Assembly (NCBI GenBank): GCA_015485575.1
Contig: WFTF01000047.1
Location: 1 to 40,660, forward strand
Source of the DNA: Patescibacteria group bacterium
Lineage (GTDB): Bacteria > Patescibacteriota > Minisyncoccia > Phycocordibacterales > UBA918
Length of the DNA stretch: 40,660 nt
Direction of reading: 5' to 3'
The notes beneath the pieces are model-generated. The model was not told the DNA's origin, did not search any database, and saw only the letters and a list, made by a program, of their open reading frames with translations. This document shows positions 3,500 to 20,166 of the stretch, piece by piece. Made by a program: the position numbers and the translations under genes. Positions within the stretch are counted from its first letter, which is position 1. Each line of letters begins with the position of its first letter.

Positions 3500-3570
3500 G
3501 CGGCCATGGTTAAGTGGTATAACGGGTCCTTGCCAAGGATCAGTCGGGAGTTCGATTCTCCCTGGCCGCA
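3500..3570 (+). tRNA. tRNA-Gly (anticodon GCC)
   Basis: Acceptor GCGGCCA/TGGCCGC, D stem GTTA/TAAC, anticodon loop TTGCCAA, T arm GGGAG-TTCGATT-CTCCC. No encoded CCA. Confidence 0.9.
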
Positions 3571-3800: not shown

Positions 3801-3824
3801 AATTTAGGGGTCAGACCCCTAATT
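3801..3824. repeat. Palindrome family A, copy 1
   Basis: AATTTAGGGGTC-A-GACCCCTAATT. Related copies lie at 14730-14755 and 16655-16679. Confidence 0.85.
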
Positions 3825-3930: not shown

Positions 3931-4830
3931 ATGACAATGAAAAAAATCGTCCTCCCTGAGGGGGACAGTCAACGAGTTCTTTCCGCTGCACAGGGGATTT
4001 TGAATCAAGGTATTTGTCATCCGGTTTTGATCGGGGATGCTGCACATATTTGCGGTGAAATTGAAGCTCCTCTTGAGAGTTATACCGTGCTTGCGTCTGA
4101 CAGTACCGAGCTGGATCGGCTGCAAGCTGCAGCTGCAGCGAAAGGTAAAGAGCTTCGCGTTTCTGACGCATCTTTGGTACAGGGTGCTGCGTTGGTACGA
4201 GACGGGTATGCTGACGGCATTGTCGGTGGTGCTCAAACCGGAACGGATGAGGTCTTTTTGGCGTATATCAAGACTATCGGTGTGCATGAGGACGTTTCTC
4301 GTGTAACCAGCTGCTTCTTGATGGAAAAAGACAATCAGCGTTTTATTTTTGCCGATTGTGCACTCAATCCGGAATCCAACGCTTCGGAACTGGCAGAAAC
4401 GGCTTACCTGAGCGCTCAATTTGCAAAAACGGTGGGAATAGAAGAGCCTGTTGTGGCATTTCTGTCTTTTCAGACCGTTGGAAATGCGCCGCATGCGCTA
4501 ATGCAGCTTCCGCGTGATGCTGCAAAAATTGCACGTGAAACCTATGCACTGCGCGCAAACGGTCCCTTGCAGTTTGATGCGGCACTGTTGCCGGATGTTG
4601 CAAAGCGCAAGACCAAAGACTGTGACGTGGCTGGACATGCCAATGTCTTTATCTTTCCGGATCTTGAAAGTGGTAACATCGGCTACAAAATCGCCGAGCG
4701 TATGGGCGGGTTTACAGCAACAGGTCCCCTGTTTTTGGGCTTTAGAAAGCCCGCCTACGACCTGTCTCGAGGGTGTTCCGTAGAAGACATCATTTCGGTG
4801 GTGCGTATGGCGGTGCAGCATGCAGAGTAA
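3931..4830 (+). CDS. pta: Phosphate acetyl/butyryl-transferase family protein
   Basis: N-terminal IVLPEGDSQRVLSAAQ...HPVLIGD and C-terminal DLSRGCSVEDIISVV are typical of the PTA_PTB family. GGAGGA lies 7 nt upstream of the ATG at 3931 (the ORF opens at 3916). Confidence 0.8.
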   Translation: MTMKKIVLPEGDSQRVLSAAQGILNQGICHPVLIGDAAHICGEIEAPLESYTVLASDSTELDRLQAAAAAKGKELRVSDASLVQGAALVRDGYADGIVGGAQTGTDEVFLAYIKTIGVHEDVSRVTSCFLMEKDNQRFIFADCALNPESNASELAETAYLSAQFAKTVGIEEPVVAFLSFQTVGNAPHALMQLPRDAAKIARETYALRANGPLQFDAALLPDVAKRKTKDCDVAGHANVFIFPDLESGNIGYKIAERMGGFTATGPLFLGFRKPAYDLSRGCSVEDIISVVRMAVQHAE

Positions 4831-4849
4831 CCATCTTTACGGTGAGATA

Positions 4850-4877
4850 AAGGGCGTTTCTCATGAAACGCCCTTTC
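4850..4877 (+). terminator. Terminator after the pta-like gene
   Basis: AAGGGCGTTTC-TCAT-GAAACGCCCTTTC. Confidence 0.7.
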
Positions 4878-5056
4878 TAATGCATATATTTATTAGTGAG
4901 ATTCAGATAGTTACACATGAAACAAAAAGTACTATGCAGACCATAGCACCCATTTACTTACTATATTTACTATATGTTGAATATATCACTGTTTTTCTCC
5001 CATTCTTATGTCACTACAAGAGGTTTCATGTGTAACCAATGATAGAGGAATAACAA

Positions 5057-5072
5057 TGTTTCACGTGACACA
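5057..5072. promoter_or_regulatory. parS-like site (15/16)
   Basis: TGTTTCACGTGACACA compared with the ParB/Spo0J consensus TGTTNCACGTGAAACA. Confidence 0.6.
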
Positions 5073-5259
5073 ACTACTATTTCATATGAAATGAAGTATT
5101 TTAAACCGGAAACAAATATCAGAATCAAAAAATCACCATTTTTGCGTATAACGGCAATAAAACACACTAAAAGTTGTCGTGCACACAGTTCACTCATTTC
5201 AAATACGATGCAATGATACGGACTCCAACTAGCCACCTTTTTGCAAAACAGAATTAAAT

Positions 5260-5289
5260 CGTGGATAACCAGGTGGATAGGTGGATAAA
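5260..5289 (+). promoter_or_regulatory. Three tandem DnaA-box-like repeats
   Basis: CGTGGATAA, GGTGGATAG and GGTGGATAA match TGTGGATAA at 8/9, 7/9 and 8/9. All are in the same orientation and are followed by an AT-rich stretch. Confidence 0.45.
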
Positions 5290-5378
5290 GGACAGTACTT
5301 TACAATGAGTGATTTTAGTAAAATATCCCTATAAATCAGTATTTTTAAAGGAAAATCATCGATTTTGTACTTTAATAA

Positions 5379-6548: not shown

Positions 6549-7472
6549 ATGATCACACATTATTTTAAAACTTTGAAAGATGACACATTGAAAGAGGTTG
6601 ACACCATTCGCACCGGTGTTTGGACTCATGTAGTGGCGCCAACAAATGAAGAGCTGTCGGAAGTTATTGAGATGTATGGACTTGATGCTTCTATCGTGAC
6701 TGATATTCAAGATTTTTTTGAGGTGCCGCGCGTGGAAAAGGCGGGAAGTGCTACCTACTTTTTTACCCGCTATCCCTATGATGAGACTGATGAAGATATT
6801 GATACCGCACCCATTTTAATTGTTATGGGGGAGTCGTTTGTGGTAACGGTATCTCCGCGTGAAATTCCCCAGTTTCATACGTTTATATCGGGGAAAGTGG
6901 ATATCAACACAACACAAAAAGCCCGATTTTTTATTCAAATTATGCACATGTTGACGCAGTCGTTTGAAAGGGAGCTTGTGCGATTGCGTAAATCGGTACA
7001 CAGCAATAAAGCTCGCTTGCGCAGTATCAGCAACCGAGACATTGAGCGGTTGGTGAACTATGAACATGAGCTCAACGACATGATTGCGGCCGTTATCCCC
7101 ACGAACACTTGGTTGCAACAGGTCACCACCGGTAACTACATACAGTTGTTCGCTGAAGATGTGGAGATGATGGAGGATCTTATGATTGCAAACAGTCAGC
7201 TGGTTGACTCGGCACGATCAGTACTGAAAACCATTCAAAATATTCGTACTGCAACGGAGTCTATTCTCGCAAATAAGCTAAACGCGACCATGCAACGCCT
7301 TACCATCTTCACTATCATTCTCACTATTCCGACGGTAGTGGCATCCCTGTATGGAATGAACGTACTTTTGCCGATGGCGGAAAATCCCTTTGCATTCTGG
7401 ATGGTCCTTATCATTATTGTGATATTGGTGGTGGGTGTGGTATTTATTTTCAAAAAAAGCAGATGGTTGTAG
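6549..7472 (+). CDS. corA: CorA-family Mg/Co transporter
   Basis: YGMNV (GMN) motif followed by two C-terminal TM helices. The ORF opens at 6420. In-frame ATGs lie at 6507, 6522 and 6549, and I chose 6549 by typical CorA length only. Confidence 0.8.
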   Translation: MITHYFKTLKDDTLKEVDTIRTGVWTHVVAPTNEELSEVIEMYGLDASIVTDIQDFFEVPRVEKAGSATYFFTRYPYDETDEDIDTAPILIVMGESFVVTVSPREIPQFHTFISGKVDINTTQKARFFIQIMHMLTQSFERELVRLRKSVHSNKARLRSISNRDIERLVNYEHELNDMIAAVIPTNTWLQQVTTGNYIQLFAEDVEMMEDLMIANSQLVDSARSVLKTIQNIRTATESILANKLNATMQRLTIFTIILTIPTVVASLYGMNVLLPMAENPFAFWMVLIIIVILVVGVVFIFKKSRWL

Positions 7473-7573: not shown

Positions 7574-8179
7574 ATGAAAAAACAAGTATTTTATATTCAT
7601 GGGGGAGAGGCATATCAAACGTATGACGATTTTTTGTCTGATTTACGGCAAAAACCACTACGTTCACCGCAGGGGGTTACTCCACCCTTATGGTACCAGA
7701 CACTCAGGGACGACTTGGGCGACGAGTATGAAGTATTTACTCCCCAAATGCCCAATAAGCAAAATGCACAGTATCAAGAGTGGAAAATATGGTTTGAGAG
7801 ACACTTTGCATTCCTGCGCGACAATGTGATTTTGCTGGGTTGGTCACTGGGGGGTATCTTTCTTGCGAAATATCTCTCGGAAAATGAACCGCCGTTTTAT
7901 GTGGACAAGTTGATACTGATGGCAGCACCATTTTACACCGAAGAGCTGACTGATATTTGCTGCGGTGATTTTGTGTTGGATCCGGAATCACTCGCCTTGT
8001 TGCCGCAAAAAGTGGGGCGGATTGTGTTACTGCACTCAAAAGACGATTTTGTGGTGCCGTATGAACATGCGTTGCTATACCAGCGTATTTTTATTACCGC
8101 CTCACTTTTATCGTTTGACGATAAGAATCATTTTTTACTTGAAAAGCTTCCTGAAGTGGTGAGGGTTATCACCGAGTAG
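7574..8179 (+). CDS. Alpha/beta serine hydrolase (YdeN/RBBP9-like)
   Basis: 201 aa with a GWSLGG nucleophile elbow and the size and layout of small serine hydrolases. Confidence 0.65.
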   Translation: MKKQVFYIHGGEAYQTYDDFLSDLRQKPLRSPQGVTPPLWYQTLRDDLGDEYEVFTPQMPNKQNAQYQEWKIWFERHFAFLRDNVILLGWSLGGIFLAKYLSENEPPFYVDKLILMAAPFYTEELTDICCGDFVLDPESLALLPQKVGRIVLLHSKDDFVVPYEHALLYQRIFITASLLSFDDKNHFLLEKLPEVVRVITE

Positions 8180-8898: not shown

Positions 8899-10548
8899 AT
8901 GAAGCGATTCAGCGAACAATTTAAGAAAAAGTCAGAAAGTATCCGTCTACGGGCAGCCGAGCGGGCGGATTTACGTGATCGTCTGGTATCGTACATGGAA
9001 TATCACCCGCTGCCTTCTGGTATGCGAGTTGAGCGTATATCCGGTGAGAAAAGGGGAATCTCGTCCGAGCCATTTTCAATTATTGCGTTTAACGTACGCT
9101 ATGTGAGAAATGCAGTCGGCTTGCTTGCCGCATTGCTGGTTGTTGCGATCCCCGTGGTTGCGGAGTGGTCAGTACCGGGAGATGTGCTCTATCCGATTAA
9201 GCGCAATATCAATGAAGAGCTGCGCTCAACACTCACACTTTCACCGTATGCTAAGGTGGAGTGGGAGACTAAGCGTCTTGAACGACGTATCGCCGAAGCA
9301 CGCCTTTTGGCGGAAAAGGGAGAGCTTACCCCTGAGAAAGAGGCGGAAGTGGTTGCTGCGGTAAGGGCGCATACGGATGCCGCGCAGCAAGAAATTGCAC
9401 ACCTCCGTCAAGAAGATGCGGACACTGCCGCAATCGCTGAAATTACTTTTGCCTCAGCGCTTGAGGTACAGTCCGAGGTGTTGGCGGGGGACACACAGCC
9501 GGAAACGTATGACGAAACAGGTAGCTCGGTAGATGCGCTGGTATATGTCGTACAAGAGGTGGTTGCCGATGTGAAAGAAGCGGTAGATGAAGCTACTCCT
9601 TCATATGAGAAGTTGTTGGGAGAAGTGGAGGCGGAAACGACCACTGCTTACGAATTATTTGCGTCCGTACAGTCGCAAATATCTGATGAACAGCGACAGG
9701 ATATTGAGCGGCGTCTTGCTGATATTGAGCGCAAAGTTGCGGAGGCAATTGCGCTCTATGCCGAGGAGGGGTCTATACAGGCGACAACGACAGATACAAA
9801 CAAGACAGAAACCGAGATGGACGGTTCAGACGCCACAGATGTAAATGGTGAGGAGAGCGCAACTTCTTCCAGTGAGACAACAGATGACTTTGAAGGTGAG
9901 GGGATGGTAGGTGCAACAGCGACCAAGACAATTGACGTATCAGAGGAAGTAAAACGTGATTCGCAAAAACCGATGGTGGTTAATCAGCTTCCTGTAGAAG
10001 GTGATCCAATCCGTATTTTACGCGAAGCATTGCAAGACGTGCAGAAGTTGATTCGTTTTATTACCGATCTTGAGTTACGCGAAGCTATATCCATTGATGA
10101 GCTGGTGCCGGTTACGCTTACCGATGAAGAGCGTTTGTCTTTGGCGCGAGATGACTATACTGTAGCAAGTACACTTGTAGATGAGATTGCATCCTACACG
10201 ATAGGAGAGGAATACGCAGAAAAAGTGACGCTTGGTATGCAACTGGTGCAAGAGGCACTCTCATCCGCAGACGCTGCGTTTGCCGCACAAAACGTATCTG
10301 CTGCCGAAGAGTACAGTGCACAAGCTCGTGTATTTGCACAGGATCTATCATTGTTGCTTCAAAATACACAACAAAAAGATGGGGTAACCACTCCTGAGGA
10401 AGGAATGGCAAGCAGCACACAACAAACAACAGTAGATGATGTAGCGGATGAAATACAGCAAGACATGTCTGAGGAGACGGATGCGCCACCTGATACATCT
10501 GCGCAGATGGGTACTGAATCGGCAAGTACTACACGCATGGATAATTAA
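8899..10548 (+). CDS. Membrane-anchored acidic protein, possible anti-sigma partner
   Basis: 549 aa, starting 9 nt after the sigma gene. It has one TM helix (VGLLAALLVVAIPVVA) and a long Glu/Asp/Ala/Thr-rich region. The function is inferred from position only. Confidence 0.55.
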   Translation: MKRFSEQFKKKSESIRLRAAERADLRDRLVSYMEYHPLPSGMRVERISGEKRGISSEPFSIIAFNVRYVRNAVGLLAALLVVAIPVVAEWSVPGDVLYPIKRNINEELRSTLTLSPYAKVEWETKRLERRIAEARLLAEKGELTPEKEAEVVAAVRAHTDAAQQEIAHLRQEDADTAAIAEITFASALEVQSEVLAGDTQPETYDETGSSVDALVYVVQEVVADVKEAVDEATPSYEKLLGEVEAETTTAYELFASVQSQISDEQRQDIERRLADIERKVAEAIALYAEEGSIQATTTDTNKTETEMDGSDATDVNGEESATSSSETTDDFEGEGMVGATATKTIDVSEEVKRDSQKPMVVNQLPVEGDPIRILREALQDVQKLIRFITDLELREAISIDELVPVTLTDEERLSLARDDYTVASTLVDEIASYTIGEEYAEKVTLGMQLVQEALSSADAAFAAQNVSAAEEYSAQARVFAQDLSLLLQNTQQKDGVTTPEEGMASSTQQTTVDDVADEIQQDMSEETDAPPDTSAQMGTESASTTRMDN

Positions 10549-13893: not shown

Positions 13894-14565
13894 ATGACAT
13901 ATCCGGAATTAAAACAGAAAGCAATTCGCTTACGGAAAGATGGCTATTCGTATAGTATGATTTCTGAAAGACTATGTGTATCCAAAAGCACGTTACACTA
14001 CTGGTTGTCAGAAATACCCTATACAGCAAATGATGAGGTACGCCAAAGAATCGGAGAGGCGCGTGCGCGCTCGGGAGAGGTAAAACATCAGCAAAAACTT
14101 GAAACGTTTCGCCAATCGGCAAAACAGGCGAAAAAGGATATAGGTACTTTGTCGCAACGTGATTTGTTTATGCTTGGGTTGGGGATTTATATTGGAGAAG
14201 GTGAGAAAGGTGAGGTGATTGGGGTGATTAACTCTGACCCGCGTATTATTGTACTTATGATGCGGTGGTTTATGGAGGTGTGTGAGTTGAAAAAAGATAA
14301 CTTTTCAATTGCCATTCATCTATACCCCGATAACAACCAAAAACAGTGTTTGCAGTTTTGGTCTGAGGTAACCGGATTGCCACAGGCACAGTTTGGTAAA
14401 ACTCAGATTGACCGCCGGCGAAACAAAAAACAAGGAAAGCGAGGGAAGTTACCATATGGAACGGCGCATTTGCGTGTAAAGAGCAACGGACAGAAGGAGT
14501 TTGGTGTACTGTTGGCACGCAGAATTCATGCGTGGATGAAACTTGTGTTAGCGCACAAGATTTGA
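13894..14565 (+). CDS. HTH + LAGLIDADG-like protein, paralog of 2754..3422
   Basis: 223 aa with HTH-like GYSYSMISERLCVSKSTLHYWLS and LAGLIDADG-like LFMLGLGIYIGEGEKGE. The gene ends 16 nt before tRNA-Gly(UCC). Confidence 0.7.
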   Translation: MTYPELKQKAIRLRKDGYSYSMISERLCVSKSTLHYWLSEIPYTANDEVRQRIGEARARSGEVKHQQKLETFRQSAKQAKKDIGTLSQRDLFMLGLGIYIGEGEKGEVIGVINSDPRIIVLMMRWFMEVCELKKDNFSIAIHLYPDNNQKQCLQFWSEVTGLPQAQFGKTQIDRRRNKKQGKRGKLPYGTAHLRVKSNGQKEFGVLLARRIHAWMKLVLAHKI

Positions 14566-14581
14566 TATAAATGTGTGCACC

Positions 14582-14652
14582 GCGGGATTAGTTAAGTGGT
14601 ATAATGCGACGCTTCCAACGTCGAGTCAGGAGTTCGATTCCCCTATCCCGCA
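14582..14652 (+). tRNA. tRNA-Gly (anticodon UCC)
   Basis: Acceptor GCGGGAT/ATCCCGC, anticodon loop CTTCCAA, T-loop TTCGATT with one A-C mismatch in the T stem. No encoded CCA. Confidence 0.8.
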
Positions 14653-14704
14653 CAAAGGAAAACTACCGCCTTCGGGCGGATTTTTCTTTGTGCGGGATAG
14701 GGGG
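14640..14704. repeat. Inverted repeat that includes the tRNA-Gly(UCC) 3' end
   Basis: CCCCTATCCCGCACAAAG (14640-14657) pairs perfectly with CTTTGTGCGGGATAGGGG (14687-14704). An inner CCGCC-TTCG-GGCGG hairpin is followed by TTTTT. Confidence 0.8.
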
Positions 14705-14720: not shown

Positions 14721-14757
14721 TTTTTTAAAAATTTAGGGGTCGGACCCCCTAAATTAA
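14721..14757. repeat. Left direct repeat of the island (palindrome A, copy 2)
   Basis: TTTTTTAAAAATTTAGGGGTCGGACCCCCTAAATTAA. The near-identical copy is at 16647-16681. Confidence 0.85.
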
Positions 14758-14840
14758 CGTCTTGTACTTTCCGGTTGTGTTTTTCTTTTCTCTATCAGTT
14801 TGAAAATTCCAACAAACTGAATTGAAATTCTCAAAAGATA

Positions 14841-14863
14841 GGACGAGCCAAATAGGCTCGTCC
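14841..14863 (-). terminator. Terminator of the 412-aa ORF
   Basis: On the minus strand: GGACGAGCC-TATTT-GGCTCGTCC followed by TATCTTTTGAG, 10 nt after the stop codon. Confidence 0.65.
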
Positions 14864-14872
14864 AATTGATAC

Positions 14873-16111
14873 TCAGGCCGCCGACTTCTGCGCGGTGTGG
14901 CATCGATAGAGTTTCATCGCCACGTTCCGAACCAGGCTGTACTCCAGATGCGGAATCAGCCACATTGCTGGAATCCACCGACGATCAGACCAGCCACGTT
15001 CCCGCAACCACGACTCGGTCCCTGCCGAGCAGTTACCGGCACGGTAGCTGTCCTCTCGGATGACCAGCGGGCAGAACCCGTGTTCGCCGTTGAGGAAGCC
15101 GACGAGGTCAGCGTGTTTCGCTACCAGTTCGTCTTGGCGTTTCCATGCGCGAAGCGCTTCACGAAGCGCTTCGCGTGGGCCACCCCAGTTGCTGTGGTAC
15201 GTCCGACCGTTGGTCGAGCGAACCAAGAACTGGAAATCGACGCCGATCTGATGGCCACGCCGACTCATCTGGGGGATGGCGATGCGGAACACCTCCGTTC
15301 CCAGCTTCACCAAGCGCGGCTCCTCCTCGCGGCGAGATTCGACTCCGTCACTCTCGTCGGCCACCTTGCACAGGTGGTAATCAACGAGCCATTCGCGCGC
15401 CTCTCGGTAGCTCCTGAAGTGGGAGTTCCCGGAGAGCGAGATCGCGGTGGCGATGACAGCGGCCTTGCCCGCCTGGTCGGTGATCATTAGGGCCTGAGCG
15501 ATGGACGCCCAGGAGGGCTTCTGCCCCTCGAAGGCACGCAGGATGGTCTCGGCGCGGTGTTTCACCTTCCAGAGTTTCCGCTCGAGCTTACCCGGCGATG
15601 GGTTACGCGCGGCGAAGTCCCACAGGTGCAGCGTGGTGCGACGAGCCCACATGCCGCGAGAAGACTGGGTCTTCTCGACTACCTTGCGGACGCCGTACAG
15701 ATCGGCAGCGGCTTTGAGCCAGCCGCAGAACCGCTGCACCTTTTTCACGACCTTCTCCGCACCTGCGCGACTGGCGTAGCGCGGGTAGCTGCCGGGCGCC
15801 ACGTTGGCGTTCACCATGTTCTCGATATTCCATGGGATGTTGGTGAACCCGGAGTCCTCGACTGCCCGGTGAACCAGATCGGAGAGGTGCGACCAGTCAA
15901 TGGTCACACCATCCCCCTGGAAATACTCCTTGTCAGTGATGGGGCACTGGAAGCGTCGAAAGGAGGAGCGTCGGACATAGCGCTCCTCGTAAACCGCCTC
16001 ATCGGCGATTTGTTTGAGGGTCATAGACCCGTCAAGGCCGTAGTCCGCGTCGGTGGCGGACATGATAAGGTGCTGGCGACGGGTGGTGTTGGTGTAAGCG
16101 TTCAGTGACAT
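14873..16111 (-). CDS. Hypothetical 412-aa protein of unrecognised family, with G/C-biased third codon positions
   Basis: It is the longest ORF in the G+C-rich segment. GAGGAGG lies about 5 nt upstream of the ATG. G/C-ending codons (CTG, GGC, CGC, ACC, AAC, ATC) are strongly preferred, unlike neighbouring genes. Confidence 0.75.
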   Translation of the reverse strand: MSLNAYTNTTRRQHLIMSATDADYGLDGSMTLKQIADEAVYEERYVRRSSFRRFQCPITDKEYFQGDGVTIDWSHLSDLVHRAVEDSGFTNIPWNIENMVNANVAPGSYPRYASRAGAEKVVKKVQRFCGWLKAAADLYGVRKVVEKTQSSRGMWARRTTLHLWDFAARNPSPGKLERKLWKVKHRAETILRAFEGQKPSWASIAQALMITDQAGKAAVIATAISLSGNSHFRSYREAREWLVDYHLCKVADESDGVESRREEEPRLVKLGTEVFRIAIPQMSRRGHQIGVDFQFLVRSTNGRTYHSNWGGPREALREALRAWKRQDELVAKHADLVGFLNGEHGFCPLVIREDSYRAGNCSAGTESWLRERGWSDRRWIPAMWLIPHLEYSLVRNVAMKLYRCHTAQKSAA

Positions 16112-16545
16112 TTGTCCTCCTCGGGCACTCGTTTGTGGCCCAATTGAAGTTGGTAGAGCGCGAGCGCATCAAGTGCGCTCAATGGGGTGTTTAACGTCCA
16201 GGAGGTCAGAACCAGACGGGAGTGTAGATACTCCACACCAGCTTTGACTAATCAAAGCCAAAGTGGAATATCTACGTTCCGTCCTATGCCTAAGTATCAA
16301 ATTGTAAAGAACAAACTATTCGTCCTTGTTTTTTCGCAAGGACATTAACGGGCACAAACGATGGTCCGATTCGTTTGTGTCCGGTATATGTCCGAACGAA
16401 TATTGTTATTGGAGGAACTGACTGCAACACATTGCTACTTGAGTCAAAACGTTTGTAACCAGGTATGAGTTTATGCAAGTGAGGAATCGCAATCATTTTG
16501 TACCTGCCAACAGTTTTTTCAGGTACCTCACTACAGAATATTGTA
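16112..16545 (-). ncRNA. Long structured 5' leader or candidate ncRNA upstream of the 412-aa ORF
   Basis: Hairpins are a 24-bp interrupted rod at 16215-16284, a hairpin at 16162-16180, a hairpin at 16351-16382, a terminator-like hairpin at 16322-16343 and a hairpin at 16500-16526. The consensus promoter lies just upstream. Confidence 0.45.
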
Positions 16546-16552
16546 TTTTTCG

Positions 16553-16581
16553 ATTATATCATATATACAGTATTATGTCAA
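16553..16581 (-). promoter_or_regulatory. Consensus sigma-70 promoter (TTGACA - 17 nt - TATAAT) firing toward the 412-aa ORF
   Basis: The minus strand reads TTGACAtaatactgtatatatgaTATAAT, with the -35 at 16576-16581 and the -10 at 16553-16558. Confidence 0.6.
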
Positions 16582-16646: not shown

Positions 16647-16690
16647 TTTTTTATAATTTAGGGGTCCGACCCCTAAATTACCCCTAAATT
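16647..16690. repeat. Right direct repeat of the island (palindrome A, copy 3, plus an extra half-arm)
   Basis: TTTTTTATAATTTAGGGGTCCGACCCCTAAATTA followed by a tandem CCCCTAAATT. Confidence 0.85.
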
Positions 16691-16740
16691 ATAAATTACG
16701 AGTGTGGTGTGTGCGTGTTTTTTGGGCTGTGTGACATAAA

Positions 16741-20117: not shown

Positions 20118-20166
20118 GTATGGTCTGTTTTTCAGCACTTGGTTCTGTGATGTGCATGGTATCAGT

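Follow-up and report, generated by a model that had tools for sequence, protein, structure and literature searches.

The 412-aa open reading frame (ORF) on the minus strand of contig WFTF01000047.1, a Patescibacteria contig of which positions 1 to 40,660 were analysed here (the window), is a monocistronic accessory gene, carried as the cargo of a self-contained expression cassette. Because a sister strain (contig L114) holds an unrelated gene in the same non-coding frame, this frame is cargo-independent and the 412-aa gene is replaceable. Read from sequence, the composite picture is of a translationally gated, accessory and replaceable cassette gene, encoding a basic and probably nucleic-acid-binding enzyme with a role in conflict or lifestyle. 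We hold this reading tentatively, at a probability of roughly 0.4.

The cassette comprises a strong sigma-70 promoter, a structured leader of ~430 nt, the coding sequence (CDS), a stop codon within a paired 3' arm and a terminator hairpin. The leader would gate translation, with pairing of the Shine-Dalgarno (SD) sequence to an anti-SD (CCUCC) in the loop of stem A competing with stem A, and the helix between the 5' and 3' arms would serve as a closing or processing stalk at the RNA level, and not as a DNA terminal inverted repeat. In four relatives, the 3' end of the transcript would be trimmed by a type III hammerhead ribozyme, which accompanies a hairpin or pseudoknot. The role of the gene would be dispensable and related to conflict or lifestyle (defence, anti-defence, host/prey interaction) rather than to core metabolism, since translation appears tightly controlled, the protein evolves faster than its neighbours and the gene is replaced in a sister strain. 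The parts of the cassette in the window are:

16553..16581, minus strand: sigma-70 promoter, TTGACA, 17-nt spacer, TG-n-TATAAT; 12 of 12 consensus positions; kept in L114
16301..16546, minus strand: distal leader, from the promoter to the 5' arm; hairpins, one of them terminator-like at 16344..16321
16288..16300, minus strand: 5' arm UUGAUACUUAGGC, complementary to the stop-codon arm on the 3' side
16224..16275, minus strand: composite leader hairpin, 22 pairs in the consensus, G·U pairs among them; 2 compensatory pairs
16189..16218, minus strand: stem A (CGUCUGG / CUGGACG, then UUAAAC), 7 bp
16162..16180, minus strand: hairpin B (GAGCGCA-CUUGA-UGCGCUC)
16116..16122, minus strand: SD sequence GAGGAGG, which pairs with CCUCCUGG in the single-sequence fold
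14873..16111, minus strand: CDS of the 412-aa protein, an ATG-to-TGA ORF; 47 kDa, isoelectric point (pI) 9.6
14866..14878, minus strand: 3' arm GCCUGAGUAUCAA, with the TGA stop codon inside; homology to L114 resumes exactly here
14841..14863, minus strand: intrinsic-terminator-like hairpin GGACGAGCC-UAUUU-GGCUCGUCC with a U-rich tail; 9 pairs, 7 of them G-C

An exchangeable gene in a conserved frame

Contigs of sister strains were obtained through the neighbouring HU protein, and four of these carry the 412-aa ORF. Between window positions 20134 and 16213, L114 matches the window at 92% identity; HU, a palindrome, the promoter, distal leader and 5' arm all fall in this stretch, as do the 22-bp hairpin and stem A. 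The match resumes exactly at CCTGAGTATCA, now at 91% identity, and covers 14877 to 14684. On the 5' side, the swapped segment is bounded just past stem A. In place of the 412-aa gene, L114 encodes an unrelated 359-aa hexapeptide-repeat/coiled-coil protein (4074-5153; Hexapep, E = 9e-12) whose gene ends on the same TGA within the arm, and the L114 arms still pair, with two G·U pairs. This cargo swap argues against the arms being the transposon ends of the 412-aa protein and against the leader being its dedicated RNA partner.

An unlikely explanation is thus a novel transposase or site-specific recombinase that mobilises the cassette encoding it, with the arms as terminal inverted repeats or flanking direct repeats as att sites. 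The arms do look like terminal inverted repeats, and the stop codon falls within the right one, an arrangement found in many insertion sequence (IS) elements; the unit is flanked by direct repeats in the window (34 nt), L011 (a perfect 19 nt), L107 (~105 nt) and L005. The adjacency of tRNA-Gly in the window and in L002, in opposite orientation, and the patchy phyletic spread of a solo gene also fit such an element. However, the arms, leader and 3' module of L114 surround a hexapeptide-repeat gene, so the arms are probably not those of this protein. They tolerate G·U pairs, which is the behaviour of RNA and not of DNA, and the conserved promoter and the hammerhead fall outside them. No target-site duplication abuts the arms, and only a single copy occurs in the 40.7-kb window or on any one contig. 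Synteny is kept, synonymous divergence (pS) is like that of the neighbours, and no DDE, HUH, tyrosine- or serine-recombinase domain or fold was detected in the 412-aa protein. An identity as an insertion sequence was rejected through the L114 cargo swap.

Palindromic repeats mark both edges of the cassette:

14722..14756, strand not applicable: palindromic repeat (TTTAGGGGTCGGACCCCTAAATTA), cassette boundary on the tRNA side
16647..16691, strand not applicable: second copy of the repeat, cassette boundary on the HU side

The core of this repeat, TTTAGGGGTCsGACCCCTAAA, occurs in perfect or near-perfect form between genes at 3803-3823, 14732-14752 and 16657-16677 of the window. The two flanking copies were considered as a target duplication and rejected as such, as the third copy (3803) marks a general repeat of the genome, which also counts against a transposase. 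A recombination hot spot and a bidirectional terminator are both possible roles for the palindrome. In L114, copies were seen at ~3530-3560, ~5275-5300 and 7037-7111, some of them bracketing an extra 1.7-kb block of two genes.

Conserved RNA structures in the leader and arms

The length of the leader (~430 nt) is set by the promoter. Conservation in L002 and L005 covers the 200 nt that adjoin the ATG, and in the comparison with L005 the leader is 82% identical over 85 nt against 71% for the CDS (DNA) and 44% for the protein. The proximal leader folds with a z-score of -5.9. Stem A was paired in 100% of cells over six sequences, with compensatory change at 2 pairs, whereas control alignments slid by 1-3 columns paired in only 24-49% of cells. 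Hairpin B forms 6-7 bp at the same place in each of five lineages, with a different sequence in each, and stem A and hairpin B were also found together in L110 and L119. The CCUCCUGG segment, which lies in the loop and 3' strand of stem A, is a possible anti-SD. A 68-aa ORF inside the distal leader is not conserved in L114.

The arms pair at the same positions over 13 nt in the window and over 14 nt in both L002, where the match is perfect, and L005, where 2 of the pairs are G·U; they are placed alike in four lineages, with T:A, T:G, C:G and G:U variants. Support from shuffling is modest at each locus (1-3 of 300 shuffles); the position is conserved. More distant members of the family (L009, L011, L106, L107, L109, L017 and L013) have other leaders, which are again rich in hairpins, and a strong promoter lies just upstream in L011 and in the two Bdellovibrionales loci, L017 and L013. 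The leader has no match in Rfam, and neither the leader nor the specific 3' hairpin was found in IMG/VR. The cassette thus has conserved, covarying RNA structures, and its leader is an undescribed RNA motif. A scan of JGI metagenomes with TCCCGTCTGG-N6-12-CCTGGACGT was discarded, as its 51 matches were made up of 50 chance matches in GC-rich coding sequence and one known contig, hence the motif is too unspecific.

An earlier note, made from the letters of the window, had described a strong SD and a terminator belonging to the gene, and both are there: GAGGAGG (16116-16122, minus strand) stands 5 nt before the ATG, and the terminator-like hairpin at 14863..14841 has 9 pairs and then a T-run. 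The same note had raised a conserved upstream non-coding region consistently paired with homologues. Such a region does accompany homologues, but it is no dedicated partner RNA, as L114 keeps the promoter, leader and 3' module around an unrelated gene.

This bears on whether the protein is an effector working with a guide, template or scaffold RNA, as in retrons, IS110 bridge RNA or OMEGA systems, the leader then being its functional RNA. A leader better conserved than the protein, with covarying helices, and a strongly basic protein would suit this idea, which is nevertheless improbable: besides being kept around the unrelated L114 cargo, the leader is replaced by different ones in more distant family members, the SD and possible anti-SD give it a cis-regulatory look, and the protein has no reverse transcriptase, RuvC or DEDD domain or fold. 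Individual checks agree with the earlier remark that reverse-transcriptase and IS110 signatures are missing. For reverse transcriptases there was no RVT match in Pfam at E<1, no DD dipeptide and no matching fold. For IS110, neither Pfam nor NCBIfam returned a DEDD (RuvC-like) or Tnp domain, and no fold matched. For TnpB/IscB, there was no RuvC (OrfB_IS605) match in Pfam and no fold match.

A real gene of deviant composition

The 412-aa ORF is a real coding gene under selection, because homologues exist and because the ratio of non-synonymous to synonymous divergence (pN/pS) against sister strains is 0.15-0.38. It is probably also an independently expressed gene, as had been proposed from the sequence. 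The proposal that it is an ORFan did not hold, since 31 close homologues and 225 clusters at 50% identity were found.

GC content at third codon positions (GC3) is 0.772 in the gene, compared to 0.494 +/- 0.051 in the 31 other ORFs of the window (maximum 0.589). Overall GC is 0.617, ranging from 0.60 to 0.66 along the ORF against ~0.45 in its flanks. The excess is a property of the family: GC3 was above that of the neighbours in all nine family loci tested, for example 0.61 vs 0.29 in L002 and 0.80 vs 0.46 in L009. The codon usage described earlier as foreign does deviate from that of the host, but the family-wide excess, the kept synteny and a pS equal to that of the neighbours make a recent import doubtful. 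Two ORFs on the opposite strand (14897-15490 and 15557-16108, plus strand; 197 and 183 aa) were rejected as genes and are a compositional artefact; the codon-aligned antisense frame is open across the family because TTA, CTA and TCA codons are rare in GC3-rich genes.

In five sister strains the pS of the gene (0.014-0.048) is like that of its neighbours, whereas its pN/pS of 0.15-0.38 compares with 0-0.04 for the neighbours, and all 412 codons are intact. Selection on the gene is purifying but relaxed. That it is a decaying, non-functional remnant of a foreign gene is very improbable. A remnant could account for the deviant GC3, the loss of the hammerhead from the window copy and a nonsense codon in the L002 lineage, but it is at odds with the intact codons and pN/pS of the sister strains, with motifs kept in 120 diverse members and with an intact promoter and SD.

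The nonsense codon was observed in the Saccharibacteria homologue (L002, 10001-11215; also L003, L004, L014 and L042), as an in-frame TAA at codon 340, a position occupied by F or Y in other members. It was seen in at least three independent assemblies, with the C-terminal motifs downstream intact, and is either a recent nonsense mutation or read through.

An undescribed protein family

Searches for the 412-aa protein returned 31 homologues at E<=1e-34 in a set of 5.8 billion sequences, and 225 cluster representatives at E<=1e-3 in a library clustered at 50% identity. A profile search of the 5.8-billion-sequence database with alignment A3 added no further relatives and no annotated ones. The protein had no match at E<1 in Pfam, PHROGs, NCBIfam or PADLOC, and the family had none among PDB sequences, including a search of the PDB with a 120-sequence profile. 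Ten long family members gave no match in Pfam, and ten diverse members gave none in PADLOC and PHROGs.

AlphaFold models reached a pLDDT (predicted local distance difference test) of 85.5 with 32 sequences, and of 91.6 with a pTM (predicted template modelling score) of 0.77 with 120 sequences. Against the PDB, Foldseek gave nothing significant with either model (best E 0.29), and a comparison with BFVD likewise gave no significant match (best E 0.014, TM 0.08). The failure to place the protein in any family, reported from the sequence alone, was therefore borne out by the empty results from Pfam, NCBIfam, PHROGs, PADLOC, PDB sequences and profiles, and Foldseek against PDB and BFVD; the profile and structure searches that the earlier note had called for gave no confident match to a well-characterised family. 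The family is undescribed: the protein fits into none of the known families, and Foldseek detects no relative of its fold.

In the model, a variable N-terminus leads into a helical domain (115-247); a beta-sheet region (250-307) comes next, then a long helix and finally a small alpha/beta C-terminal domain. Family motifs are LPxN (N95), KTQSxRG, SPGxLER, GKAA (K216), DxSDGV (D255), GRTYH (H306), AWKRQD and DSYxAGNCxxGTExW (C361), and near-invariant positions across 120 diverse members are P93, N95, G130, G153, P173, K216, G256, H306, G359, C361 and G364. The acidic ESDGVESRREEE segment, taken at first for a linker between two domains, turned out to hold the best-conserved motif of the family, with D255-G256-V257 invariant in alignment A1, in an ordered beta region with pLDDT >90. 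A recount of residues confirmed the earlier hand count of 14 Trp, the six Cys and the lack of any DD dipeptide or CxxC pair; there are also 42 Arg.

The protein is basic (net charge ~+16, pI 9.6), with a pI of 10.6 in the central helical domain, hence it probably binds nucleic acid. Conservation suggests that the near-invariant His306, Cys361, Asp255, Lys216 and Asn95 probably form an active or metal-binding site. Papain-like and NlpC-P60-type Cys-His hydrolases carry a Cys at the N-terminus of a helix together with a His, and here C361 directly precedes helix 362-372 in the C-terminal domain of the model, and H306 is near-invariant; neither a fold nor a profile match was found.

The 3' end and hammerhead ribozymes

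In four relatives (L002, L005, L011 and L106), a canonical type III hammerhead lies 60-110 nt past the stop codon, preceded by a hairpin. The conserved module after the stop in these four reads AAAGGTTTGAGGAG.ACCTTAGT.AA.CTCCTCA and then the hammerhead, whose core is intact and which has stems I-III, with CUC as its cleavage site. Matches to RF00008 (E = 7.5e-7 and 3e-5) were below the gathering score. An identical hammerhead core (CTGATGAGTCCAAAAGGACGAAA) occurs in 36 IMG/VR contigs, nearly always right after a GC hairpin.

The terminator hairpin of the window sits at the position of the hairpin before the hammerhead in relatives, and is followed by:

14760..14835, minus strand: 15-bp hairpin, then CUGAUAGAG...GAAAA, without a stem II

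By its sequence, the CUGAUAGAG...GAAAA segment may be the relic of a decayed hammerhead, and it is no functional ribozyme; the window has no match to RF00008 at E<5. A stem-II-like hairpin upstream (16321-16344) was considered as a hammerhead and set aside, as it has no hammerhead core.

The element before the hammerhead can form an H-type pseudoknot (AAGGU..GAGGAG..ACCUU..CUCCUC) at ~11255-11290 in L002, ~9268-9305 in L005, ~9085-9120 in L011 and ~5525-5560 in L106. These sites are near-invariant, hence they show no covariation. In L005 (5143-5165, 7557-7611, 9307-9361, 7639-7754, 9522-9586 and 10043-10158), small cassettes of one gene each form an array, with type III hammerheads between them as well as 35-107-nt repeats that contain an imperfect palindrome. 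In L011, the perfect 19-nt direct repeat stands right after the -10 box (7807-7825) and again right after the hammerhead (9166-9184), and a hairpin loop of the leader contains a 23-nt tandem duplication (7860-7905).

Distribution, inheritance and the weight of the evidence

Genomes, one per GTDB species, were scanned with the back-translated pattern DSYxAGNCxxGTxxW, which gave seven loci; the taxonomic sample is small and restricted by this pattern. Six of the loci belong to two metagenome-assembled genomes (MAGs) of the Candidate Phyla Radiation (CPR; Parcubacteria and Saccharibacteria), three Bdellovibrionales and one alphaproteobacterial MAG, while the seventh (L015, Sulfurimonas) was put aside as probably a chance match. 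So far, nearly all the bacteria in which the family has been seen are episymbionts or predators. Every homologue is a solo gene; the neighbourhoods are unrelated or variable and often have toxin-antitoxin or nuclease-type genes adjacent.

Gene order is kept within two clades. The Bdellovibrionales loci L017 and L013 are collinear over 8 kb, and L106, L107 and L109 have in common the order ORF ... lactamase-B, L28, M50, S12, with 41-45% identity among their family proteins and 47-53% among their lactamase-B proteins. The DNA of the window and that of L002 are 64% identical across the ORF and 69% across PDT, a gene nearby.

Such data raise the alternative of a resident, vertically inherited protein specific to lineages with an episymbiotic or predatory lifestyle, for example in regulation or in the handling of host-derived nucleic acids, and not a conflict gene. 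The restriction of the scan hits to the CPR, Bdellovibrionales and alphaproteobacterial genomes speaks for it, as do the collinearity of L017 and L013, the synteny of L106, L107 and L109 with a family protein that has diverged about as much as lactamase-B, and a pS equal to that of the neighbours. We consider it doubtful, if far from negligible, since another gene takes its place in sister strain L114, the L002 lineage has an in-frame stop, pN/pS is 5-10 times that of the neighbours and the neighbourhoods vary; the taxonomic sample behind it is also tiny and limited by the search pattern.

Several observations weigh against the replaceable, translationally gated conflict or lifestyle gene that we favour. 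The synteny kept in two clades suggests long residence of the gene, which is unusual for conflict genes, and its neighbours in the window are housekeeping genes. The family was not found in IMG/VR, nor by tblastn in INPHARED phages or PLSDB plasmids, and no defence, phage or toxin hidden Markov model matched it. The anti-SD is present in only 3-4 of six leaders, and the GC3 excess is not accounted for by an accessory gene in a cassette.

Beside the cassette in the window lies a tRNA-Gly gene (14582-14653, TCC), and a tRNA-Gly gene adjoins the cassette in the Saccharibacteria MAG L002 as well (9438-9508, GCC). Relative to this gene, the cassette points one way in the window and the other way in L002, and the PDT and MS-channel genes that flank it differ in order. 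The 3' 23 nt of the window tRNA recur inverted just downstream (14640-14703), giving a 23-bp stem that encloses a small terminator, CCGCCTTCGGGCGG. On the other side of the tRNA gene is a 223-aa HTH_23 protein (13894-14565, plus strand), which is split into ORFs of 138 and 89 aa in sister strain L115.

Implications

Should these inferences hold, a family that numbers at least 225 clusters, is confidently modelled and lacks any relative in sequence or fold would be a candidate for a new enzyme fold, concentrated in the CPR and Bdellovibrionales, lineages whose biology is largely unknown. The leader, together with a helix that closes over the stop codon, would be an undescribed cis-acting RNA architecture absent from Rfam. 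The cargo swap would show that ultra-small genomes may exchange accessory genes without recognisable mobile-element machinery, and hammerhead ribozymes would act as 3'-end modules outside phages. The lasting GC3 excess of a resident gene is an unexplained evolutionary signal.

A bolder version is that the frame of promoter, leader, arm and terminator is a 'socket', that is, an undescribed system of cassette exchange in Patescibacteria in which entire coding sequences would be exchanged with precision between two landmarks of RNA structure, the first just past stem A-GUUAAA and the second ahead of the stop-codon arm. It would include a new enzyme fold with a His/Cys/Asp centre, an action on foreign (host, prey or phage) nucleic acids and a GC-rich synonymous usage that is selected at the level of the mRNA or gene and does not stem from recent transfer, and we regard this whole as unlikely.

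Comparison with known systems

The cassette is a variant of known self-contained accessory modules, namely hammerhead-flanked genes and phage morons, and it has partial likenesses to several other systems. Insertion sequences with a stop codon in the right inverted repeat have similar inverted arms of 13-14 nt, a single ORF of ~400 aa and adjacency to a tRNA. Here, however, the arms surround a cargo that is no transposase and contain G·U pairs, with no target-site duplication, no multiple copies and no transposase fold. TnpB/IscB (OMEGA) elements have their omega RNA at the 3' end of the element, where the window has a terminator and its relatives a hammerhead.

Integron cassettes are comparable in that, behind a fixed promoter, one cargo replaces another between landmarks that stay in place, with palindromic repeats as bounds, and in the arrays of small, repeat-separated cassettes in L005 and L114. 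The present cassette differs in having its own promoter, in the lack of an IntI (Phage_integrase) gene within 10 kb on either side in L001 and in repeats that do not have the attC architecture (no comparison with attC models was made). The integron core site GTTRRRY was tried and found inconsistent, as it fits the window and L110 and not L002, L005 or L114.

In rRNA operons and T7 early mRNAs, long-range pairing of 5' and 3' sequences into RNase III stalks encloses a functional unit. The 5' and 3' arms of the cassette may be analogous, in that they would enclose the unit by long-range pairing; their helix differs in being only 13-14 bp long and in overlapping the stop codon.

Hammerheads are known to flank single genes in prophages (Perreault et al. 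2011, PMC3088659), and the hairpin and type III hammerhead after the stop in relatives, with the same core in 36 IMG/VR contigs, resemble these modules. The window copy differs in having no functional hammerhead. Family loci are no prophages, the protein was not found in phage collections, and the 3' hairpin and leader are not in IMG/VR.

Phage morons are self-contained accessory expression cassettes. Like them, the cassette supplies a single gene with a strong promoter and a terminator of its own, is inserted between unrelated genes and is dispensable and replaceable. It differs from morons in its long structured leader, in the 5'/3' helix that closes over the stop codon and in the predicted ribozyme-based 3' processing of its relatives, and also in being chromosomal, in CPR and Bdellovibrionales genomes with kept synteny.

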